NCBI RefSeq assembly: GCF_004010195.1
Contig: NC_057713.1
Coordinates: forward strand, 77,496,360-77,560,359
Direction: 5' to 3'
DNA length: 64,000 nucleotides
From: Chiloscyllium plagiosum
Taxonomy: Eukaryota
In this document: one piece after another, positions 11,396-58,714 of the stretch
Layout of the letters: the number at the start of each line of letters is the position of its first letter
Numbering within the stretch: the first letter of the stretch is position 1
Position numbers and translations under genes: made by a program
The notes under the pieces: model-generated
Database searches by the model: none
What the model was told of the DNA's origin: nothing
The model's input: the letters and a program-made list of their open reading frames with translations, nothing else

Positions 11396-12954
11396 TCAGT
11401 TTCTCATACGGAACTAATAAGTGTTGCCAACTTACATAACAAGCAATTGAAGAGCATTGACTTCTTTGATGTAATAATCCAGTCGTATGTCAAAAGATTA
11501 TGAAACTATTTTTGTTCTAACTTAAGTATTAATGTTCACTAGATTTGTAAAAGGTTATGGAAGAGTTATTCACTATGTTGTGCGTGATTGAACAATCAAG
11601 CTGAGAATGACATGCCAATTTGTATTATTCACTTTGATAGTTACACAGAGGAACACAGTGTCAAATGTCATATATTATAGAAACACAAAAGCAATTAGTA
11701 TTGTGAATTTAGGGTTTATGGACAATTTAGGATCAGGCAGCATTGACACACACAAACCTAAATATAACAATAGTGCTTATGATTTGTTGAAGAAATTTAA
11801 TTAATTGATTTTAAAATACTTTCAGGTTTGTAAATACTTCTTGGGAAATAATTGTGAAATTCATACTTCAGTCTTCAGTGGGTTATCCATTCTTCATTGG
11901 CATGTTAGATTGATCGACAATTTTTCCAGCAAATATGTTTTTGTTAACTTGGGTAGGCAATTTGGAATGAAGCATGTGAAGGCATAATGTTAATTAAGTT
12001 GCATAATTTTCAAAAGGTTGCAAAAGCCTTTGAGGGCTGAAAGGCCTTTTGCTGCTCCTATTTATTTTTTATAATTTTAAAAAATTCTTTATGAAACAGT
12101 AACTTCAGGATTAAATATATTATTTTAAGGTGACAGAACAAGTTGATGAGGATGCTAAAAATGCACACTGTACCCTGAGCTTCACAGAAGGAGAAAAGGA
12201 AATTTAAATCTCACAAAATGCGTGAAACAAATCGACAGGGATGCTTTAAAAACGCAAGCATGGGAAGTTTCACCCTAAACTGTGCTAGCATAATCACTTG
12301 AAGTAATTAACAAAGGTAGAGTTTGGGGAGGCAGTGTAGCTGCAGTTCACTAACCTGGAAAAGACGTATCATTAAACAATATAATAAGACCTCACGTATT
12401 AAGACCATTCTTAAATTTAGCCATTCTATGTTATGTTTCCTGGAACTTGGGAAATCTGACAGTTGAAAATAAATAGGAATGGTGAGATTCAGCAAGCTAG
12501 ATTTTTCCAGCATTGTTTTTAATCAAAAGAAGGGGGTGTTCTTCAACCAAGTCCATCAAACTAAACTTTTTCAAATTCTGTGATACAGTTTTAGGTACTC
12601 TCTGTACAATTTTATTATCCCATCTCCAAATTGTTCCTCTGCGTCTCCCTTTGCCTATGTCCTCCCAGGTGTTCCACAATATCGCCCTGATCCATAATCT
12701 CACCCTCCCTCCTTTCTTCTGTTATTTGTCATCTGTGCTTCATAGTTGTGGACTTATAACACAGTTTTTTTTTCCCCAGCTGAAGGCAGTCAGCCTATCA
12801 TTCTGGCTGAGAATAAGTTAGAAATAAAGTCATAAGAGTTAAATGAAGCCCTAACTTTAATTATATTTGGCACAACATCCAAGAAAACTGCACTGCTGTA
12901 TTTCTGAACAGCTATAATTTTGTCCAACTTGCTTCCTTTATTCCTTGTAACTAT

Positions 12955-20189: not shown

Positions 20190-20375
20190 CATGATGTGAA
20201 GGTGCTGGTGTTGGACTGGGTAGACAAAGCCAGAGGTCACATGACACCAGGTTATAGTCCACCAGTTTTATTTGGAATCACAAGCTTTCGAATCAGGTGA
20301 CTTCACTGTGCTCCAAATGCTTGTGATTTCAAATAAACTTGTTGGACTATAACCTGGTTTTGTGTGACCTCTGAC
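20190..20375. mobile_element. Short PLE-terminus insert (family B), inverted-repeat form
   Basis: Arms agaggtcacatgacaccaggttatagtcca...caagctttcg and gcttgtgatttcaaataaacttgttggactataacctgg...tgacctct are reverse complements. TSD tctgatttta at 20180-20189 and 20376-20385. Confidence 0.85.
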
Positions 20376-22894
20376 TCTGATTTTATAATAAGATTCAAAT
20401 AAATGTGAAACAGTAATATAAACAGTTGCTACATTACTCAATATACAGTAGCCATGAGGTTAGTGATTCAGAGAAATACACAAAGGAGTACTGATCAATG
20501 TCATTTGGGATTAGTCTGAATCTATTTGCATTGGTCAAAGTAAAAAGTTCAAATCTCCCAACTTTCTATGTTCAGTACTACTTATAATATTAAGAATACT
20601 TTGCTGATATATTCAACTTATTGCAAATTAATTTGTTTAATTTAACACACTTAGACACCTTATAAACTCTGAAATCCACTTGCTTGTATGTCCAACGTAT
20701 TCATTGATTTTTCTCATAGTTTGCAACTTTAATAATGACCTTTTCCCATTTGTTTCTAAATTATATTCAATTAATTTTTTTGGACATTAGATGCCTGCTT
20801 GGCTTTGAGCAGAAATCTCATTAATGGTTTTTGCATAGAGAGCAATCTGGGTGAAAATGCTTTTATAATTCGTCAATTTTAAGAAGTGTTTCTTTTGCTT
20901 GAATTAATTTGCACATCACTAAATTAATTTGCATGAAGCAGCGCTGTTGGATAGCCTTTTAGAGATTAATTTCCAAAAATAAATGCTCTGCTGAAGAGTA
21001 TTCTCTGATACACATTGCAGTTTTACCTGGCACTCATGGACTATCTTCCAAATGCTCAGTTTCCTTTTGAAAACATTCATTGCTTCCTGTGACACTGAGT
21101 TCCAATTTCGAACTATTTACCAATGAATAAATGCTCTTCTTCTTTTCCTATTGGATTTATTAATAACAGCTTGTACTATGACCTCATCATTTAATTCTTC
21201 CATTAGTGGAAAGGCTTTCTCTACATCCAGCCAGTCTGACACATTCATAATTTCACAGACCTTCCTTTCATTTCAATTATAACAAAACATAAAACAGCCT
21301 GAAACTTCGAATACATATGGAGATAATACTTAATTCAAATTAAAATTAATTATGAATAAATTCTGCTAATCTGTGCAGGAAATTTGCACTCAGTTTCTAT
21401 ACTGTCCTGGTGGGAATATCTGGGCAGTATCACTTGGTTTTGACATTTCTTTATTGATCAACAGTGGAAACTATCCTCAGGTGAAAAAAATACATTCAGT
21501 TAGCTATCAGATTAAATAAAAGGTACCTAGCTTTCCATTCTCCTTGTGCATTCCTTTCAATATGATGCAAGAAACAATTAATAGTTTATTGGGTTGTGGG
21601 ACACTGTCCTCATTCTGAATGACATTCAGAGAAGCAATCCTCCAAGGGTTGTTTAAAAAAGCAACTGCAGTCTCAAAGCTGTAAATGGGTGAACAGAATT
21701 TCATGGCCCACTCTGGGGATAGGTTGACAGGTAGTATAAGAGCTATAAAATTGAACACCATGCCATAAGGCACTATTTGTGACATATAACCGGCCACCCT
21801 AATGTCACTTGTGGAGGAGTTGTGAAAGGACTGTCCACCCAACTGAGGCCGCTAAATATCTGTTAACGGCTACTCTTAAGGGCTATTCTTCTGTCATTCC
21901 CAATGGTAGGATATGCGCATTATGGAGATCAGCTGGTTTTGCTGCTTGGTTTAGATGTTGGTCATTGGGGTGAAAGGACGGTGGGACTGTGCAGGAGTGC
22001 CTCCTTTATGGGGTTCTTGCAACCATTGAGGTCCCTCCATTAAGGATTTCCCATCCAAATATTTCCTCTCCTCAGCTGTCGTGCCCACCTGGACAAAATC
22101 TTCATACTCCCCTTGGCCATGGCCTCCCAACCTGTTGTTTAACAACATGATGGTTCTGAATGAGTTACTTTTGAAGACACTGCTGTATCCATCTTTTGTG
22201 GGGTCCCGAAGTACATCACCAGTCTACATCCTCCCATCCGTATATCTGAACTAAAGTGTGAAACAATTTCACTATAAGTCTATCAGAGATTTTTTAATGT
22301 TTTGATCTTGATCATGGAATTGCTAATTAGTGCCTCTGGCTCGATATTGTAGATTCTTCATCTCACTGTGATACTTCTACAGGGAGTGATAAAAAGAAAA
22401 CATCATGTGAGGTCACCCCAAAGATCATTTTATATATAAAACTAAGAGCAAAGATGCCAGATCGGATACTAAGTGTTCAACCATGGTGTCCCCTGAGGAT
22501 CGGAGAAGCTCACAAGCCTCGAGCTGAATATTAATATGTTGGTTAGATGGATTGACACAGCACCCTGTCATAATATTTGGAGGCAGTATTGTCTTCCAGC
22601 TTAAATAGAAGCCTTGTAAAATAATATAATGAAAATGTTTTGAGTGTATTTATATAGACTAGAAATCATAGTCTTGTGAAAACCTTTTATAAATAGCTAG
22701 AGATTATGTGAACAACATCAATAATATTACGTATTATTCAAAATTTATAAATCCCAAAACTTTCATTGACCAAGGGAAACTTTTTGACTTACCGGTAAAT
22801 CTTTTGAGCTTTGATATCAACAATAAGAACATATGAGAACTGTTATTTAAAGAGACTATTGTGTTCATGGAGATTTATTACAGGTTTGTTTTCT

Positions 22895-27910: not shown

Positions 27911-29290
27911 AGCTGGTAGAATAGGTTATAGTGACTTAAATCTGCCAGTACTGCATCATCAGTAGCTAGTTATCAGTCTCATGTTGATATGTGCATTCTA
28001 ATATACCGATAGATCTCCGTAGAATAGAGTTACAGTCAAACTGTAGATAATGTTGTCTAACGATCTTGAACTGAAGTGGTTTATACAGGTTTAATTTTTG
28101 CAACTGCTGTTATCATTAACACATTCTACTGGGATTAAGGTTTCTTTCAACCATCTGGAATTGAAATTAATGGTTGGGAATGCAGCTTTTACAGTTCCAT
28201 TATTTGGCATGAATATTTGATCTAGTTGATCACTTCTACAAATACCTGCTGCAATGTTTTATATGGCCATGGTTTGATGTCTTATCCATTTAGAGTATCT
28301 TCAGTTTCACAGTATATAATATATGGTCTCGACCATAAGGCGTCTAATCTGTGTTTGTTTTCAGCTTTTGATCTCAAAGTCTGATATTCTGGCTTCCGAT
28401 CCTCATGGTGCAGTGCAAACTGTATAGAAGGCAGATCATTATTTCAATGCCACTTGATAAATTAACCTGTGGTGGAATGAAATAACTGCTTTGCTGTTAT
28501 CTGCAAGTCATTGCAGGTCATGGCAAGCAAAGCAGAAAACCACTGAGTTTATTTTTAAAACTCCATTATAAAGTTCATTCTGAAATGGTTAATATGCCGA
28601 AATATTGAAATCAAAACATTGCTTTGTGTTATTGTTTCAAAAGAGTTACATTGAAATTCTGAAATATGTAACAATTTCAGGCCATCAGAAAAATAACAGC
28701 ATATTAGTTCAATCCATATATAAAATACCCTCAATGTTAACTTAAGCCATGAATGGAGAATCCATAGAATAGGACATGAGCTTGGCCAAGTTAAAAAAAA
28801 GTCTACAATGCTTTTGCAATGAATATGGGCCATCTTAACTCCAAGCAGACTATGGGGCACGTTTTTGAGGAGAGAGATTTTAAAAAGACATATGAGGCAA
28901 TGTTTTTACACAGATGGTGATTCTCATGTGGAATGAACTTCCTGAGGAGGTGGTGGATGCAGATACAAAAAGCTAGTCAACTAGTGTACATATCACCATA
29001 TAAATCTGCTATATGTATCCGATCTGATCTACATGACTTCTGATCCACAGAAATGTGGCTGACTCTTCAGCCCTCTAAGATGGCCCAGCAAGCCATTCTG
29101 TTCAATGGCAATTAGAGATGGGTAACAAATGTTGAAATTGCTAGCAACACCCACATTGAATATAAAAGAATATCACTTTCAGCAATTATTTTCCCTAATA
29201 ATGTTTCTGAATATAGTGATATATTACTCCTCTCTTCATCATATCCTAGAACACATCACTTTCCTATTACATACATAAACTTTTCCCAGG

Positions 29291-29413
29291 AGAAAGTGAG
29301 GACTGCAGATGCTGGAGATCAGAGCTGAAAATGTGTTGCTGGAAAAGCGCAGCAGGTCAGGCAGCATCCAAGGAACAGGAGAATCGACGTTTCGGGCATA
29401 AGCCCTTCTTCAG
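29291..29413 (-). mobile_element. Young solo PLE-terminus insert (family A) with hammerhead core and 17-bp TSD
   Basis: Perfect direct repeat cataaacttttcccagg at 29274-29290 and 29414-29430. The insert on the minus strand starts CTGAAGAAGGGCTTATGCCCGAAACGTC. Confidence 0.92.
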
Positions 29414-30489
29414 CATAAACTTTTCCCAGGCAGTCTCCCTCAATTCAATCTCGACATATTTCCTTACATTCATCACATGTGCACTCTTGTTCTCTCTGGC
29501 TTTTTCCCTACCTCCCACGACACACAGTAGATGCAAAGATTCAGTTTTCTTCAGTTTTCAGTAGCTAATCCCAATGTCAACACTATTGTTCAGCATATCA
29601 AGACTGCACATAACGTAAATTCAGGAGTAAGATGGGAAGAGGAGTCTTCATCAGCATTACCCAAATCCACTGAAGGGGATACATTAGTGCTGAGTGTCCG
29701 AGGATAACTTCAAAGAGAAGCTGATAACTACCTCAGAAAGCACTTTGCTGAGTATTAATAATCGTTAAGCTAACATGCAGCATGCTCCAAAATATAATCT
29801 CAGGTCTACCCCTGAAAGTGATCATTTCTCAATCAGTCTAATTTTTTACCATTCCACATTCTTCTGGGTTGTCCAGGATTCTGAAAAGCAAGAAGCCTTG
29901 AAAACATACAATCTTTCACTGAATGCACCATCATTTGCTTCCTCTCTCCCTAGCATCTGCTTAGTCATTGATAATTCTGTATGACCTCAGCAGTGAATAA
30001 TAGCATTTGTACTTCTCATATGCAGGCAATTCACTGCTCAGGAGAGTCCACTGGAAGGTGGATTCTGTTGCAGCTCTGATGGGGGCAGAAATTAGAATTT
30101 CACAAGGTCAGTCATGTATATACAATATGTGGTGTCTCAAAGCAGTTATGTGGGGTACTGAAAGGTCTTAATTATAGAGTTTCAGTATAGTGGCTAAAAA
30201 TATGGGATGTGCTTTGAGGATGGAGTGTACTAGACTATCTTCAGGATGTCAGGACCTGTCAGCAGCAATGAAGGTGCAACAATCTGCAGCCAAGCATTCA
30301 CAAACTCAAACACCTAGAAATGACTTGGCCACAAGCATGCCAATGGTGCTGGTACAAGCAACTGTAAGCTTTCGCCTGCTCTGCTAGGACCACTAGAAGT
30401 GAAAGAGTTAGCATATTTCTTGGTAAGAGGTTTCCTATGAGTCAATTACTTTGGTGGAAAATGAATGGAGACAGTTCCAACATTTTTCA

Positions 30490-32180: not shown

Positions 32181-35009
32181 GTGCTGGGAACAATTTACAG
32201 AGAGAAAGAGAGGTGTTTAGTTTTTCCCAGTGGACCAGTGGAATGGTTCACTGATAGCAGGTGACAAACAGATTATTGGTGCAGAATGTGTCAGCACTCT
32301 TAAGGTTATGGGCAGCATCCTGCTCTCTAGCTGAAGTGTTAGTGAATTCTTCCCTTGGTCTTCTCCTATCCTTCTGGCCCAACTTCCATATGCCTGGTCA
32401 AAACTACATATGAATGCTGCTCTCTGAGAAAACTCCTCTCTTCCCTGAGTCTATTCTTGATCCCTCTGCGATCCTTTTCTAGCTTGGATTTGACTGTCCT
32501 AGCTTCCTTGGCCCCAGTGAAGTTATTCGAGCGCAGATGTGGCTCAGCCCCTGTGAAATTCCCTTAGTTCCTCCTGTCCTGAGTACCCCCATTCTCCGAG
32601 CCTGACACTTATTGTTATATCATATTTCTAGGGAAAGGTTATTTTCTCTGTTTCAATCAGTTACCTGAACCCTTCTGGTTAATGGCCAAGGGATAGCTAT
32701 TCATGATGCTGGATGATCATTATCCCCTTGTCCACCTTCATGTGAGGATTTGTTAACCATTCTTTCTAAGCTTATTTTCAAAACCAACACAATGGTAACA
32801 GACTGCATTTGGGTCAGATGAATTGTTGATGGCAGTCTTGAGCATCATGACTTCTGTGTTTTTCATAATCCTCTCCTTTGTTTTTATATGCTTGAATTTT
32901 GGAAAGTTATGCACTGCTGTAATGGCTTTTAAATGAAATCTCATGTTACACATTAAATACAAGGAAAAATCAGTTTTTGAAGGGAGTCTTCAACATCAGG
33001 AACAGTCTCTCTTTTCTCTGCAGTATGCCAAACGTTTGCAGACTTACCTCCAAACCCAGGCCTCCTTGACCAGTCCAGATCCCATCCCCAGCCTCTGGAA
33101 TTCTCTGGATGCAATCAGCCATGCAGGCACTCCAGCCACCTCCACAGCCGCAGTTGATGACGTCACCTCTGTAGAAGCCACCGTTGATGTCTCTTCCACA
33201 GCCGCCACAGAAAACACCATTCTTGCGACCACCATCTTCGCGAATACCACTGACCTTACCGCTGCTGATGACATCACTTCCACTCCCATGGGTGCTATCA
33301 ACAAGGTTAGTTCCAGCCCTACGACCACTACCGATTATGTCACTTCTGCAAGCGCCCCACCGTGACAGCCGCCGATGTCACTTTTGCTGATGCCGTCGGC
33401 CATGCTGCTTCCATGAACCCCGCCAGTCACATGACTGCTGACATCACCACCAATCCAATGCACACTCCCACTACAGAGACAGTCTCTACTCCCATTCCCA
33501 ACTACAGCTCCACACTCAGCCCCAGCCCCAAGCCCTGCTGAGTATTTATCACCCTCCCAGACCTCCCCCTCACTGAGGATGAACAAGCAGTGATCAGCAA
33601 AGGGCTCGCCTTCATTCCACTATACCCACATGTCAGTGAATTCTGTTGAAATCTTTAATGCCTCCACCTCAATGCCTATTTTTCCAATCGTGACTCCCAC
33701 CACCCTCCGAAGACTCCTTCTTCCACCTCCAACATACTCCATCTTCTTGGACACCCTGTGCTGGCCTTTTATCCTCCCTCAAACCCTTCATCTCCAACTG
33801 CCTTTGTAACATTATCTGCCTTAAAGTCTTCAGCCACTCCAGACTCTCACCTTCGCAAAACACAGTCCTACACTCCTTCGGCTCCAATTCAAGCGTCACC
33901 AACAAACTAGCTGACAAGGGAAGAGCAGTGGTTGTATGGTTCACTGACCTCTACATTAAGGAGGCCAGATGCCAACCCACTGACATCACCTACCCTCAAC
34001 CATGATCCCAACTCCCATCACCAAACCACCATCGCCAAGACCATCCACAATCCCATCAGCTCAGGGGATCTCCCAGCCACAGCTTCCAACCTCATAGTTC
34101 CCCAAACCCACAGTGCTCGGTTCTATCTCTTACCCAAAATCCACAAACCTGACTGCCCCAGTCAACCAATTGTCTCCACCTGCTACTGCCCTACCAAACT
34201 CGTCTCAGCTTATCTCAACTCTGTCCTGTCCTCCTTGGTCTAGAAACTCCCAATATATGTCCAAGACACCACCCAAGCCTTCCACCTCCTCCATGACTTC
34301 CGATTTCCTGGCCACCAACACCTCACCTTCACCATGGACATCCAATCCCCCTACACCTGCATCCTCCATAAGGAACCTCAAAGCCATAGTTTCTTGCTCT
34401 CCTACTGACCTACCCAGTCACCCTTCACCAACACTTTCAATTGGTGGAACTGGTCCTCACCCTAAACAACTTCTTCTTTCAATCCTCCCACTTCCTACAA
34501 ACCAGAAGGATGTTTATGGGTACCTGCATGGGTCCCAGCTATGCCTGTCTCTTCCACAGCTACAGCAGCACCATCCCCCACCTTGTCCTCCACCACATCA
34601 ATAATTGTATCGGTGCTGCCTCCCATGAGGAGCTGAATAGGTCATTCACTACACCAACATCTTCCACCCTGATGTCAAGTTCACCTGGACCATCTCCGAC
34701 ACCTGCCTCCCCTTCATGGACCTCTCCATCTCCACCTCTGGCAACTGACTTAACACTGACGTTTACAGGTAGACAACACTTTATCTGAAATCCTGAAATC
34801 CGAAAGGTTTCTCGTGAAGTCTTTTCTCATTAACAAGGTTGTTTGGCATGCAAACAGTTAACCAACTCCACACCCACTCAAGCATGTCACTTAGATGTGA
34901 TGTGGGTGGGCGTGGCCCAGCACTGACAGGCTTCAATTCTGTCTCAGAGTCCATAGTATTCACATTGAGTCTGCTGTTCGGTATGATTTTTAAAAATTTC
35001 ACCATCAAA

Positions 35010-35500
35010 ATGTAGCAAGTTTTGAGAAGATTTGTAGCTCAGGTTGATGTGTTGGATGTAGGTTTGCTTGCTGAGCTGGAAGGTTTATTTTCAGATGTTT
35101 CGTCACCATACTAGGTGACATCTTCAGTGAACCTCCGGACGAAGCCTGTCTTTTAGTGTTGTTTCTAATGCTGCTAAGAAATCTTTCTTGTCCACATCTT
35201 GGAAGTTGTAATTTAATCCTTACTAAGATGGCTTTTTCAGTTTTTGTTAAGGGTCGATCAGATAAGTTTATTATCCATGCTTCTGTGTTGTCAGTTTTGT
35301 TGCTTTGTGCAAGTTTGTCTAGGTTTTTTTTGCAGGTCAAGTTTTGTTCATTTTCTCTGTTTGTCTCTGTCTAATATCTATGGCTTGATGTACCATGTAC
35401 TGTGGCTTCGTCTGGAGGCTCACTGAAGATGTTACCTAGTGTGGTGATGAAACATCTGAAAAATGAACCTTCTAGCTCAGCGAGCAAACCTACATCCAGA
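35010..35500 (-). mobile_element. PLE family C: two inverted termini with hammerheads flanking an ORF N-terminal fragment
   Basis: TSD accatcaaa (35001-35009 and 35501-35509). Inverted arms at ~35050-35145 and ~35406-35500. Peptide 'WIINLSDRPLTKTEKAIL' is typical of the PLE N-terminal region. Confidence 0.88.
35089..35129 (-). ncRNA. Minimal hammerhead ribozyme motif (PLE family C)
   Basis: Minus strand CA-CUGAAGA-U-GUCACC-uaguau-GGUGAC-GAA-ACAU-C|UG: core, 6-bp helix II and short helix I. A mirror copy lies on + at ~35421-35458. Confidence 0.7.
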
Positions 35501-38500
35501 ACCATCAAAGTGTCACTTATTCCAAAATTTGAAAAATTTCCAATTTTGAAAACCAGCTGGTCCTGAATGTTTTGGATAATGAGTTGTGTACCTGCATTTC
35601 AAATCCACTGACTCCCACAGCTACCTTGACTACACTTCCTCCCACCACCTCTTACTGTCAAAATGTGATCCCTTACTTCCAATTCCTCCACCTCTGCTGC
35701 ATCTGCTCCAGGATGAGCGATTCCACTCCAGGACATCCCGGATGTCCTCCTACTTCAAGGACCACAATTTCCTCTTCCTTGTTACCTCAATCACATCTCC
35801 TCTGTTTCTGCACCTCCTACCTCAAAACCCACCCTTCAATACCCCAACAAAGATAGAAGCCCCCGGTCATCACATTCCACCCCACTAATCTCCAAATCCA
35901 TTGTATCATCCTCCACCATTTTCGCCACCCACAGTCAGACCTCATCACCAAGAACATATTTCCCTCCCCACCCCATTTGCGTCTGGTAGGGACCATTTCT
36001 TCTGTAACTCCCTCATTAAGTCCACACTCTCCACCAACCCCCTCTCCACACCCTGCACCTTTCCCTGCCTCTGTGAGATGTGCAAAACTTACACCCACAC
36101 CTCCGCCCTCACCTCTGTCAAAAGCCCCAAAAGAACATTCCAAATCCATCAGAGATTTATTTGCATATACTTGAACATAATTTGCTGCATCTGTTGCTCT
36201 CAATGTGGTCTCCTCTACATCAGACAGACTGAGTGCAAATTCACGGAACAGTTCAGGGAACAGCTCTGGTCCATACGCACCATCCAACCCCACTTTTAGT
36301 GGCCATCCCTTTCAACTCCCCCTTCCACTGCCCTGGAGTTAAATGCTTGTTCTGGGCCTCCTCCACTGTCTTAACAAGACTACTAGCAAACTGGAGGAGG
36401 CACACCTCACCTTCGATTCAGTAGCCTACAACCGCTTTACTTGAACATTGAATTCACCAGTTTCCAAATCTCCCCTCACCCCACCCTATCCTAGATCCAA
36501 CCCACTGCCACGGCTCCACACTCTTGACCTGATGTACCTGTCAATTGTCCTTCCCAGCTAACCTCTCCACACTTCCCACTGACCTACTTTCACCCACCTA
36601 TCGCCATCCCAACTACCTTTTCCCTAGCCCCACTCGCACTCCTGTTCACTTCTCAGCCCCTTTTCCCCCTCCCCCGTCCAGATGAAGGGTTAAGCCCAAA
36701 ATGTTAACTCTCTTGCGCCTCAGATGCTGCCTAACCTGCTGTGCTTTTTCTGGCACCACACTTTATTGATTCTTATCCCTGCATTCCAATGCAGTGCTAT
36801 GCCGGTAGATGGTGGAAGTTTGATTAATTTGAAACAGAGAGACTGAAATTGTAGGGTGATCCTGTGCAGCTCAGACTTTAGCAAGCTGCACTAACCAATG
36901 TGGCAGCAACAGTCTGGGCTGATAGGCAGTACTGCAGATCTTGCCAGAAGACATGGAAAAAGGAAAGCTTTCATCCTCAGACAAAGGGTTCATATTCCAG
37001 TGCCTCTCTCACAGGACCACATTTGAAGATGTTGAAGAACAGATTGCTTGACTGCTGTGATGTCTTGAAAGCCCCTTTGAACACTGACATCCATAGCTTA
37101 TTGTGAGAATGTGTGTAGCAGCCTGTGTGGTCGCAACCAATGCAACTCCTAAACATAAAGTGGTGTCTGAGAAAGGAGAAAAAAAAATGAATTGAGTGAG
37201 ATAACTTACATTGTTATTGCCAGAGATGTTTAATGTAATCAACATTGAGGAAGACCCAGAATTCACAGGGCTGGTAGAAATGGTTAATTTTATGTCTTCA
37301 AAAATACTAAAGCTCGTGACAAATGTAGTGCGAGTGAGAAGCAATCTTTCAGTAAAATGACTGAAAGTTTGAAAAGAATTAACTTTACCAGTCAAATAAC
37401 AAAATTGGTCAACATTCACTGATCCAATACCTGGTCAGGAAGAAAAAAGCTACCTGGCCTAATAATCCAAGATTCTATAAAATAGAGGCTACCCTTTTCA
37501 GTTAGAAGGTGATTCCCTGATCCTGAAATCTAGATACTACACAAAATACTGTCAGCTGTCTTGCGGGAAGGAACTTTAGGAGATTATTAGTCCTCCTGAT
37601 AAAGTAATAGGCCAAAAGTGTTGTTAATATATGCAAATAATGATATTCTTGGTGAAGGATATTCAAGAGAAAATATATTCCGCAGAGAATTGATCTACAA
37701 ATCAGAAATGATCCCTAGATCAGAACTAGCATCAACAGTCCTAAAGCAAGAGATCCAATATATTCTAAGTCTAAAAAGAGTTTACTCTGAGAAAAGTATA
37801 AAATGACCAGAGGAAAGGTAATAGTTGTGAATGCGATATAATTATTCACATATTGTATAAAGGTTAACCAGGGGAAAATGGTTTGGAAGGGATTGATTCT
37901 GAAGGGGTAATTATTCAGATTACATTTATTCCATCCATCATATTGATGTTCTGCATAGGCTATGGTTGGAGACAAGCAGTTCTGCTCTAACATTCAGAGG
38001 AAGCAGATATATCTGCATCAGCTCCCTAAGGTGCCAGCTATTATGCCTGATCAGCTAGAATTGTATTTATTGCTATCATGCTATCATGCTATCTTGTTAT
38101 TGAAGAATAGTTCCTTTTCTGTCGATATTCTACAGTGGTGTATCCTCTATCAGTAACCACTAGATAGGCATGAGAAAAAGTAAATATCATGGCAAGTGAA
38201 TTTTAGGGCACAATTAATATAATGTTGTTAGGTGAAGGAGGGATGATTAATTGATCAGTTTCTGAGGCCAGTGATAGAGCTGGCAGCACATAGCATTGCA
38301 AGGTAAATTAAATACTTATGCATAATCACTATACAGGGTCTTCAAGGCTACATTGAGAGTCATGGATGACTGCTCTTCATGTCTTCTTAGAGTTTGAGTA
38401 GATAGTGTGCTAAAAACCTGCTGACATAGGGTATCCTTCCACATGAATCCCTCTTGTGCCAAGGCTTTGTGCCCTGCCTGTGAGAGTGTTTTGGCTCACA

Positions 38501-41144: not shown

Positions 41145-41820
41145 TATTTAGCACACTTGTCTCTGAGTCAGAAGGTTGTGAGTCACATGTCACACCTTGA
41201 AACCAAAATTCTGGCTGACAGTTGAGGGGATGCTGAATTGTCAGAAGTGCAGTCTTTTAGCTAAGGTATTAAACCAAGTCCCTTTCTAGCCTCTTAGTTG
41301 AATGTATGAGATTAAGTTGTACTTTTTGAAGAAGACCATAAATGTTCAATCATACCTTCCCCATCGCACACAGAGTATGTATTCTGATTCCACCATCACT
41401 AAAAGAGATTACCTAATTATTATCACTTTGCTGTTTGCCTGTGTTTGCCGTGCACAAATTGGTACCATGCTTCCTAAATTACTGCAGTGAACTACACTTC
41501 AAAAGAACTTAATTGGCTGTGCAGAGCTTTGGGAGGTCTTAAATTTGTGAAATGTGCTATTTAAATGCAAGGAGAAAGTGAGGACTGCAGATGCTGGAGA
41601 TCAGAGCTGAAAATGTGTTGCTGGAAAAGCGCAGCAGGTCAGGCAGCATCCAGGGAACAGGAGGATTGACGTTTCGGGCATAAGCCCTACTTCAGATACA
41701 TTCCTGAAGGAGGGCTTATGCCCGTAACATCGATTCTCCTGTTCCTTGGATGCTGCCTGACCTGCTGCGCTTTTCCAGCAACACATTTTCAGCTATTTAA
41801 ATGCAAGCTCAATCTTTCTT
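41145..41820 (+). mobile_element. Deu-domain SINE (SacSINE1/AmnSINE1-like) with a PLE insert in its tail
   Basis: tRNA-like head ctctgagtcagaaggttgtgag; Deu core ttgtcagaagtgcagtctttt...ttaaacc...gaagaaga; tail actacacttcaaaagaacttaattggctgt...gtgaaatgtgctatttaaatgcaag. Confidence 0.8.
41572..41791. mobile_element. Palindromic PLE-terminus insert (family A) with 16-bp TSD
   Basis: TSD gctatttaaatgcaag at 41556-41571 and 41792-41807; ~90-bp inverted arms around the spacer atacattc. Confidence 0.93.
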
Positions 41821-50585: not shown

Positions 50586-51165
50586 TAATATCTCCACTTT
50601 GCATCTTAGTTCTCTGATAAGTTTTTTTTTAAAGTGCATGAATTTCCAACTAACTTCTCCTAATCACATCCATAATACTATTTAAAGACCTGTGGAAACC
50701 CCTGAAAAATGCTGTCAATGCAATCTCCCAGGAGTTTTGATGAATGGTTTCAAAGGTAAAGCAACTTGGGTTTATATAGCAATTCTAATATAGAAGACAA
50801 ATACCAAAGCAGTTATGGAATGATCAGATAAACACTGAACCAGTGCAGAGATATGAAATTGCTGACAAAAGGCAAGTTAAAGAGGTCTGGTTTAAGAAAA
50901 TTTGAGGGAAGGCAAAATGAAGGTTAAAGAGTTTAAGGGAATATATTGCAGAGCATAGGCCCAATCCGATAACAATAATAACATATCCTCATAACAACCT
51001 GAACATAGTAAGGCATGTGAAGTTGCTTTATGAGCCCACGTGACACTAAGACTAATAAGGAGCTATCCGGCAGGTCATAGAGTCATAGAGATGTACTGCA
51101 CGGAAACAGACCCTTCAGTTCAACTCGCCCATGCTGACTAGATATCCTAATCTAATCTAGTCTCA

Positions 51166-51299
51166 AAGTTAAAAATCACACAACACCAGGTTATAGTCCA
51201 ACAGGTTTAATTGGAAGCACACTAGCTTTCGGAGCACTGGTCCTTCTTCAGGTGATTGTGACCAGGTGACCCCAGTCCAACACCGGCATCTCCAAATCA
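51166..51299 (-). mobile_element. Short PLE family B insert with 13-bp TSD
   Basis: TSD taatctagtctca at 51153-51165 and 51300-51312; homologous to 20190-20375; the last ~30 nt are inverted relative to the rest. Confidence 0.9.
51220..51254 (-). ncRNA. Minimal hammerhead ribozyme motif (PLE family B)
   Basis: Minus strand CAC-CUGAAGA-A-GGACC-agu-GCUCC-GAA-AGCU-A|GUG: helix I CAC/GUG, helix II with 1 mismatch, palindromic AGCU in place of helix III. Confidence 0.75.
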
Positions 51300-52179
51300 T
51301 AATCTAGTCTCATTTGCCAGCACTTGGCCCACATCCCTTTAAACCCTTCCTATTCATATACCCATCCTGATGCTTTTTAAGTTCTGTAATTATACCAGCC
51401 TCCACCACTGCCTCTACCAGCTCATTCCATACATGTGCCACCCTCTGTGTGAAAAAGTTGCCCCTTAGCGCCCCAGGAAAAAGACCTATCCATGTCCCTC
51501 ATGCTTTTATAAACCAAACTGTGCAGATTCACTGTTTGGTCAGTTTGCAGTGTAGGTTTCTTTCTCTCTCCCCCTCCTGACCATGTGCTCGATGCCTCTG
51601 TCTATCTTCCTCCCTTTTAAAAGTGCAGTTGTTTTGATTATTTTTCCCTAAAGTTCAAAAACAACGCAACAGTATATAAAACAGTAATTGCTGCTCGTAG
51701 AATTTGAGGAAGTCACTGCCAGCCATCTAAAGTATCTCAAAAAAGGATCAGTTCTTACAGCCACAATTTTTCCCCATCCTCCATCTTGATGATCAAGAAC
51801 TTGGGTAACAAGATTCAAACCTTCAGATATTAAAATTTTTGAATATGATAGCAACTGGAAGAATAAGCAAGATCATGGATATGGCATTAGGCAAAGTAGA
51901 TCTTATGCTTCTGTCTGCATATTTTTAATATGTTTGTGAGATGTAGACTTACACATGGTGCTGTGAGGAAAGAAGTTCCAGGAATTTGATCCAGTGATAA
52001 TAAAGGAGCACCAATATGCTTCTAACTTAGGATGGCATGTGGCTTAGTGAGGACTTGAAGATAGTAGTGTTTTCTTGCATCAGTGGTCATTGTCATTTTA
52101 GATAATAGAGTTCATGGGTTGGAAAATATCTAAATTCCACATTACCTATGTACTTACCAGGCAGGAGGAGAAGAGGAGC

Positions 52180-52269
52180 TGAAAATGTGTTGCTGGAAAA
52201 GCGCAACAGGTCAGGCAGCATCCAAGGAGCAGGAGAATCGACGTTTCGAGCATGAGCCCTTCTTCAGGA
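52180..52269 (-). mobile_element. 90-bp PLE family A insert with hammerhead core and 17-bp TSD
   Basis: TSD aggaggagaagaggagc at 52163-52179 and 52270-52286. Minus strand TC-CTGAAGA-A-GGGC-tcat-GCTC-GAA-ACGT-C|GA. Confidence 0.9.
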
Positions 52270-52329
52270 AGGAGGAGAAGAGGAGCAAAAGACACAATGT
52301 TTTCAGCTTCTTTAGACTGTTGTAGAGAT

Positions 52330-58122: not shown

Positions 58123-58714
58123 GGCGAAAGTGAGGACTGCAGGTACTGGGGATTAGAGTCAAGAGTATGGTGCTGGAAAAGCACAGCAGGTCAGGCAGCA
58201 TCCGAGGAGCAGGAGACTCGCCGTTTCAGGAAAAAGCCCTTCATCAGAAATGTGGCTGTGAGCCGAAAGCATGATGAGATAAATGGGAGGGGAGGTGGGT
58301 CTGTGGGGAATGTAGCTGAGAGTGCAATACGTAAATGGAGGTGGGGAGAATGGTGATAGATCAGAGAGCAAGGTGGAGCAGATAGGTGGGAAGTAAGATG
58401 GACAGGTCAGGAGGGCATTACCATGTTGGGAGGTTGGAACTGGGATAAGGTGGGGGTAGGGCAAATGAAGAAACTGGTGAAATCTGCATTGATGCCGTGG
58501 AGTTGGATGGTCCCAAGGTGAAAGATGAGGCATTCTTCCTCCAGACATTGGGTGGTTTGGGAGTTGGGATGGTGGAGGCTGAGGACCTGCATCTCATTGG
58601 TAGAGTGGGAGGGGGAGTTGAAGTGTTTGGCCAGAGGGTGGTGGGGTTGGTGGGTGCGGGTGTCTCAGAGATGCTCTCTGAAGCAATATGCAAATAGGCA
58701 TCCTCTTGACTTAT
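58123..58714 (-). mobile_element. PLE 3' fragment inserted in the Gypsy LTR
   Basis: ggcgaaagtgaggactgcag terminus; 'LEEECLIFHLGTIQLHGINADF'; ccttttata at 58114-58122 and 58715-58723. Confidence 0.9.

Follow-up and report, generated by a model that had tools for sequence, protein, structure and literature searches.

The focal insert and related copies in the window

The window, as we call the whole 64,000-nucleotide stretch of Chiloscyllium plagiosum DNA analysed here, carries on its minus strand a 123-bp insert flanked by exact 17-bp duplications of its target site (TSDs), just what the original prediction read (Table 1). Its first base on that strand is the initial C of CUGAAGA in the hammerhead core; GGGC-UUAU-GCCC and GAAACGUC come next, again in agreement with that reading. 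Element positions are numbered below along the sense strand from this C (+1, window 29413, minus strand), zero being omitted. The insert belongs to the end of a pseudo-LTR (pLTR) of a Penelope-like element (PLE).

Table 1. Features of the focal insert and of related copies (positions in the window)
Feature	Position	Strand	Remarks
Left 17-bp TSD copy	29274..29290		Exact repeat
Focal insert, 123 bp	29291..29413	-	Element +1 to +123 of the PLE pLTR end; tailed, without inverted arm
Right 17-bp TSD copy	29414..29430		Exact repeat
Minimal hammerhead core	29386..29413	-	From sequence, fold and the description of minimal hammerheads in the accessible part of PMC4209133
First preferred 3' end, AGCT (+88 to +91)	29323..29326	-	Putative first RT start site
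Tail of ~32-36 nt, to the second preferred 3' end (+123 to +127)	29291..29322	-	Putative second RT start site
Relative 1, head-to-head compound	41556..41807		16-bp TSD, 41556-41571 / 41792-41807
Short insertion of a second hammerhead-bearing family	51153..51312	-	13-bp TSD, 51153-51165 / 51300-51312
Relative 2, tailless single arm (52176-52267)	52163..52286	-	17-bp TSD, 52163-52179 / 52270-52286
3' end of an older long relative	58126..58247	-	84% identity to the focal insert

The two near-identical relatives that had been announced, each with its own TSD, both exist, but the site at 41572 is a double arm and not a single copy. A tailed arm (41573-41695, minus strand, 4 mismatches in 123 positions to the focal insert) is separated by 8 nt from a tailless arm in inverted orientation (41704-41794, plus strand, 3 mismatches in 91), and a single TSD encloses the pair. 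Relative 2 has 4 mismatches in 92, and in the older relative the element sequence runs on at its upstream side. Contigs of the focal site from one study (runs X15, X16, X17 and X18) reach from a flank no more than 20-25 letters into the insert, where bridging would require 31; they are compatible with presence of the insert, list no joint that skips it and are unable to show its absence.

The window also holds remains of other elements. The segment 32937-36764 (plus strand) is probably an older long PLE. Its Thr/Ala-rich ORF (32937-33365), which to the eye is similar to the N-terminal portion of the young ORF of a copy elsewhere in the genome (L275), is followed by RT-like and GIY-YIG-like stretches and, near 36681, by a degraded hammerhead. 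Two older ORFs of the window have no match in Pfam. Older head-to-head repeat pairs of other families lie at 20225-20379 and 35088-35462, and both arms of the latter bear hammerhead-like cores.

Hammerhead motif

Sequence and fold of the insert display the features of a minimal type I hammerhead, namely the core CUGANGA..GAAA..UH, a stem II and a palindromic helix III. In the focal copy these are CUGAAGA, stem II at 29394-29405 and GAAAC-GUC with the palindrome ACGU and no loop III, and the cut is predicted to fall between 29386 and 29385. Because the insert begins at core C3, which is preceded by a host G, helix I lacks its 5' strand (element -4 to -1). Copies that reach -4 could form a helix I of 2 bp plus a mismatch, as read from their sequence. 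Stem II alone is stable in folding of the focal insert (z -0.01), and an Rfam scan gives no hammerhead at E<=1 and only 2 chance-level matches.

Family size and parent element

The family is the pLTR end of a young and very abundant Penelope-like element, putatively of Neptune type. Exact matches in the 3.56-Gb genome number 45,227 for element +1 to +26 and 32,789 for +49 to +91, against 0 for a reversed control pattern, which argues that the family is not a product of chance. Counts come from exact patterns; when the insert was used as query in a BLAST-type search, which skips very common words, the genome gave 0 matches, an uninformative result. The sample of arms was drawn from 100 places listed of the 32,789 and comprises 101 arms in 90 insertions, one mate lying just past the list; it is confined to the initial 9.2 Mb of contig C1.

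A 3.9-kb insertion at locus L139, with a 15-bp TSD read by eye, has an inverted arm that ends at +91 and a forward arm that ends with the tail. It encodes a parent ORF of 674 aa that matches Pfam RVT_1 above cut-off (E=8e-9). By eye, the translation of a further frame shows the linker CNRKKCKTC (C-x4-C-x2-C) and the GIY-YIG-like IYCIRC..LYIGETG..RFREH. The parent fits the Neptune/Nematis type, a label based on this predicted linker motif as described in the accessible part of PMC8557442. Its layout is pLTR, hammerhead, tail, ATG at +163, RT/GIY-YIG ORF and pLTR. The sequence past the tail is common to copies and leads to the ATG at +163 and the ORF start. The studied stretch is found both at the 3' end and before the ORF, which identifies it as the pLTR. 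Tails that continue into element sequence number 1,156 in the genome. A 43-mer of the RT region has 20 matches; it represents the variant of one copy and long copies are often interrupted by N gaps, so no copy ratio is drawn.

Three loci (L219, L228 and L230) have a tail end at +113 to +131 that is similar to a 3' splice site (CTCAC, pyrimidines and AG at +131), with no matching donor seen there, and two short upstream ORFs before the ATG at +163. In two older long copies (L029 and L041) no stop codon closes the endonuclease frame across the 3' region, and it enters the hammerhead, which may be due to chance in C-rich DNA.

3' ends, inverted arms and target site duplications

Two 3' ends are preferred: 37 of the 101 sampled arms are tailless and end at +91 to +98, while 64 are tailed and end at about +123 to +127. 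An inverted arm is adjacent in 53 of the 90 insertions, and 50 of those 53 have a one-sided tail. TSDs of at least 10 bp are found in 55 of the 90 insertions, with a median of 15 bp and most at 14-16 bp. The two-arm plan of the short copies recurs in the 3.9-kb insertion at L139. The RT of Poseidon_Ac uses two start sites a tail-length apart and extends both target strands, according to the accessible part of PMC11167929, and the two 3' ends and inverted arms found here match these start sites and this two-strand extension.

Identical or nearly identical complex inverted-arm junctions recur at unrelated loci (L021/L023, L005/L034/L072 and L009/L020/L042), either as favoured microhomologies or as re-copied hairpin insertions. 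At L149 and L003/L004 the inverted arms are parted by several hundred to ~1,600 bases of other sequence; these may be single insertions carrying unrelated DNA.

The 5' edge and the extra G

A start at the hammerhead core, put forward in the original prediction, is true of the focal copy and is not the family rule, the modal start being -4/-3 with a sharp edge at -4. With a downstream anchor, the 5' ends of the 101 arms fall at +11 or beyond in 18, at +1 to +10 in 26, at -5 to -1 in 38, at -9 to -6 in 5 and at -10 or farther upstream in 14. One arm beside an N gap had its start reassigned by eye from -569 to -3, and 7 of the 14 long arms are cut by N gaps. Among the 57 arms that reach -1, 38 stop at -5 to -1, about 25 times the rate farther upstream (0.13 ends per nt, vs 0.005 at -10 to -110). 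Genome counts fall from 45,227 (+1 to +26) to 12,410 for -9 to +26, and stand at 11,786 for -44 to -10, the last pattern not being nested; interior counts are biased low because long copies are often cut by N gaps. Few ends coincide with the predicted cut: 2 of the 101 arms begin at +29 itself, and +26 to +29 together account for 9. This spread of ends is not smooth, and the suspicion that the short copies are something other than random truncations proved correct.

The edge base is the A of TCATTC at -4, which fits the initiator consensus. The base at -5 was tallied by hand in the 100 matches listed out of 5,012 that carry A or C at -6: 48 have C, 35 G, 13 A and 4 T. G accounts for 35 of the 52 non-reference bases, vs 0.19 expected from the window (p=3e-14). 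Long arms carry C at -5 in 64 of 64 read (65 examined) and G in 0. In the tally as a whole C nevertheless leads at -5 (48 of the 100 listed), in part from long copies with a -6 variant. By the same hand tally G is present in both stem-loop subfamilies (30/83 and 5/17 of the matches listed), indicating that it is not the base of one master copy. TSDs were read by eye for this analysis, short ones having been missed by the TSD finder. At L163, L167 and L169 the G falls inside the TSD and is therefore target-derived, selected only by microhomology; at L084 it lies clearly outside. A G acquired by copying a cap is known in other retroelements; our literature search found no paper on cap-derived G. 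A splice acceptor as the edge was rejected, AG being absent at -6/-5 and no upstream exon being common to the copies.

A second hammerhead-bearing family, with 18,918 exact 38-mer matches in the genome and one short insertion in the window (Table 1), offers a comparison. Its sampled loci (L245-L274) have two 3' ends ~38 nt apart and inverted pairs. Short copies begin 6-8 nt ahead of the core, on the A of a CA, and G frequently stands in front: by eye, G precedes this A in 6 of 7 readable short starts and C does in 9 of 9 long copies, after leaving out of the 30 loci 7 without readable core and 7 with inverted, ambiguous or other junctions. The distance of the edge from the core differs between the families (-4 in the first, -8/-6 in the second), the edge being at the A of CA in both. 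One locus of the second family (L256) has PLE-like ORF pieces upstream, as seen by eye.

Relation of short and long copies

The short copies are young, as foreseen, with a private mismatch of ~2.3%. Their proposed identity as a distinct mobile unit is weakened by the haplotypes that they share with long copies and by their mixing with them on the tree. Haplotypes were compared in a pool of 237 arms from several searches (160 short, 65 long, 12 other), which includes some duplicates and arms of older subfamilies. Each of the four common haplotypes holds both classes (57/23, 31/21, 24/6 and 20/8; chi2 p=0.25), and private mismatch is 2.4% in short and 2.2% in long copies. A FastTree phylogeny of 198 arms requires 44 label changes vs 51.6+-2.8 after shuffling, where a separate clade would need ~1; the short copies cluster mildly, 3 of 300 shuffles being as low. 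The 69G sub-lineage (2,378 matches) has 28 short and 2 long copies in 30 sampled, and the 2 long ones led to its rejection as a short-only lineage. Other apparent short-only variants were likewise rejected, as they are older subfamilies whose upstream sequence is not alignable to the reference. Short and long copies have in common their haplotypes, divergence, both 3' ends and inversions.

Thirty of the 569 matches to the ORF start were sampled. Ten are joined directly to a unit starting at -9 to +10, their junctions scattering from +196 to +423; the others have longer units (9), later starts (3) or none (8). The templates of these joined units held ORF sequence that is absent from solo short copies. 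A fixed RNA 3' end near +217, suggested by 3 loci, was rejected because 30 loci scatter from +196 to +960.

The copies display one SINE-like feature, a defined 5' end with its edge at -4, but not a lineage of their own with diagnostic changes apart from the autonomous partner. Judged by eye, they resemble tRNA-like boxes, at a spacing that is too short. In the loci examined there is no array of uniform complete-hammerhead units, and the partial tandems differ at their junctions. Short copies may to some extent be copied secondarily. By the features tested the insert is a member of the PLE class, neither retrozyme nor SINE.

Origin of the short copies

We privilege as probable the reading that the insert is a short retrocopy of the pLTR end. 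The element's RT, primed at the cut target, would have begun synthesis ~95-130 nt downstream of the 5' terminus, likely capped, of the element's own mRNA and run off there, which gives a product similar to strong-stop DNA. Transcription of the ORF-bearing mRNA would start at the A of TCATTC (-4) and the extra G would record a C added opposite the cap. RT priming would take place at +91 or about +125 of either pLTR, giving run-off copies after ~95-130 nt from the 5' pLTR and long, variably truncated copies from the 3' pLTR. Priming on both target strands, one per start site, would generate head-to-head arms with a single tail. The run-off cDNA would then anneal to the target by microhomology with loss of few bases (four in the focal copy); alternatively, it would meet a second cDNA from the other strand, as putatively at 41572, or jump back onto the RNA. 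The hammerhead would be carried along because it lies close behind the start, its cut site not being the main boundary. The accessible literature describes a transcription start site and an internal promoter within the pLTR of D. virilis Penelope (PMC2377424), as well as internal RT starts with no need for hammerhead cleavage (PMC11167929). Against the run-off reading, the edge coincides with the 5' strand of hammerhead helix I, and 44 of the 101 arms start downstream of -1, so that trimming or early stops are needed. The target-derived G at several loci, the frequent C at -5, the mild clustering of short copies and their predominance in 69G also weigh against it.

The coincidence with helix I (-4 to -1) speaks for a barrier to RT. 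Priming would always occur at the 3' pLTR of long RNAs, and RT would usually stall at the 5' edge of the hammerhead, add a C and join the target, the obstacle being a folded or dimeric ribozyme or a bound protein. Minimal hammerheads are thought to dimerise (PMC4209133, accessible part), and common haplotypes and equal age fit this model equally well. We consider it unlikely, since a stall would be expected on helix entry from the 3' side (+20 to +32) and not past the helices, stem II is the sole stable helix in folding, and the edge moves from -4 in one family to -8/-6 in the other, always at the A of CA. Moreover, short-start units join pieces of the ORF start, which sit just behind the 5' pLTR. 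Somewhat less likely again is the separate non-autonomous unit of the original prediction, SINE- or retrozyme-like, for which short masters would supply the transcripts and the PLE protein the mobility in trans. In favour of this view, the copies have no ORF, possess individual TSDs and a sharp 5' edge, and run to tens of thousands; the predominance of short copies in the 69G lineage (28/30) and the mild clustering on the tree point the same way. An internal promoter like that of D. virilis Penelope (PMC2377424) could allow copies starting at the transcription start site to be transcribed, and pLTR sequences were enough for trans mobilisation in a rotifer (PMC3846280), both from the parts accessible. 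However, each of the four common haplotypes includes long arms, as does 69G. The 5' junctions vary, with the G in two subfamilies, uniform arrays are absent from the loci examined, where partial tandems differ at their junctions, and the focal copy, devoid of -4 to -1, could not build helix I by itself. Copies that arise as a by-product of the RNA of the autonomous element are a better fit than a unit moved in trans.

Definition of the 5' ends by hammerhead cleavage is very improbable. A minor cluster of 9 of the 101 arms at +26 to +29, 2 of them exactly at +29, speaks for it, but the cluster sits on palindromes that favour joints and the main edge lies ~32 nt upstream of the cut. Hammerhead mutants also left in vitro insertion unchanged in the accessible account (PMC11167929), and cleavage as main cause of the 5' ends is refuted by their distribution. 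Even less credit can be given to ordinary random truncation by a poorly processive RT. Heavy 5' truncation is typical of PLEs (PMC8557442, accessible part) and the ends upstream of -10 are indeed scattered, but the ~25-fold excess at -5 to -1, the drop from 45,227 to 12,410 matches within 9 nt with little more by -44 (a pattern not nested in the former) and the excess of G before the edge stand against it. For the short class this explanation is refuted by the end counts.

If the run-off reading of the short copies is true, the start of transcription, the cap and both priming sites can be read from the genome itself to the exact base, the model is testable in the existing in vitro PLE assay, and the solo occurrence of many metazoan minimal hammerheads would be explained. 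The short copies also touch on the open question of pseudo-LTR regeneration, for which the accessible part of Schostak et al. gives no obvious mechanism beyond a tendency toward tandems. A bolder and rather doubtful extension is that PLEs replicate through a target-primed equivalent of strong-stop DNA, with priming behind the cap, run-off and transfer of the cDNA to the 3' pLTR or elsewhere on the RNA. pLTRs and partial tandems would then be regenerated by cDNA transfer, and the short copies, in their tens of thousands, would represent stranded intermediates from which the start sites, cap and jump points of each family could be mapped. On the run-off reading, the short copies should not be annotated as a separate SINE family or as working ribozymes.

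Comparison with known systems

Inverted arms, tails, TSDs and solo minimal hammerheads are already in print (PMC8557442, PMC3846280 and PMC4209133, in their accessible parts). For cap run-off copies of PLEs no paper was found by a search outside which lay most subscription papers, repeat databases and supplements. Craig et al. 2021 (PMC8557442) and Arkhipova et al. 2013 (PMC3846280) describe insertions of EN+ PLEs with a CX2-5CxxC linker as 5'-truncated, in partial tandem and inverted, and as bearing a tail of 30-40 bp. The family studied here has in common with the EN+ PLEs of Neptune/Nematis type the RT ORF, the GIY-YIG-like C-terminus, the pLTR hammerhead and the TSDs, as well as the one-sided tail, the head-to-head arms and the occurrence of inverted and tandem insertions. 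It departs from these accounts in that one edge, accompanied by an extra G, is where the majority of copies stop, whereas truncation is variable in the accessible parts of the same papers and inversions are attributed to self-priming on the antisense template.

Poseidon_Ac (Frangieh et al. 2024, PMC11167929) likewise has two internal RT start sites downstream of the hammerhead; shorter 5' templates lead to shorter products and both target strands are extended. In Poseidon_Ac the ATG is at stem II and the start sites fall within the ORF, while here they lie ~40-70 nt before the ATG. The accessible portion of that paper has neither mapping of transcription starts nor genomic run-off copies.

The core, the G-C-closed stem II and the palindromic 15.2-16.2 are those of the metazoan PLE minimal hammerheads (Cervera and De la Pena 2014, PMC4209133), which are mostly single, "probably related to truncated PLEs", and in some cases paired on opposite strands. 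Unlike them, as far as the accessible part of that paper describes them, helix I is reduced to 2 bp plus a mismatch in the long copies and its 5' strand is absent in the focal copy. Non-LTR retrozymes, in the accessible parts of their descriptions, are similarly ORF-less, PLE-derived and equipped with a type I hammerhead (Li et al. 2026, bioRxiv 10.64898/2026.07.22.740005; Cervera 2020, PMC7229834). They form tandem arrays of complete ribozymes and circular RNAs, in contrast to the single or inverted copies dispersed here among long PLEs.

Two further processes are comparable with the proposed run-off copies. Retroviral minus-strand strong-stop DNA is primed close to the RNA's 5' end and runs off at the cap, and in twin priming of L1 two primers on one target lead to an inversion. 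Strong-stop DNA is tRNA-primed, whereas priming here would be by the target, and, unlike those of L1 inversions, the arms found here mostly overlap in sequence.
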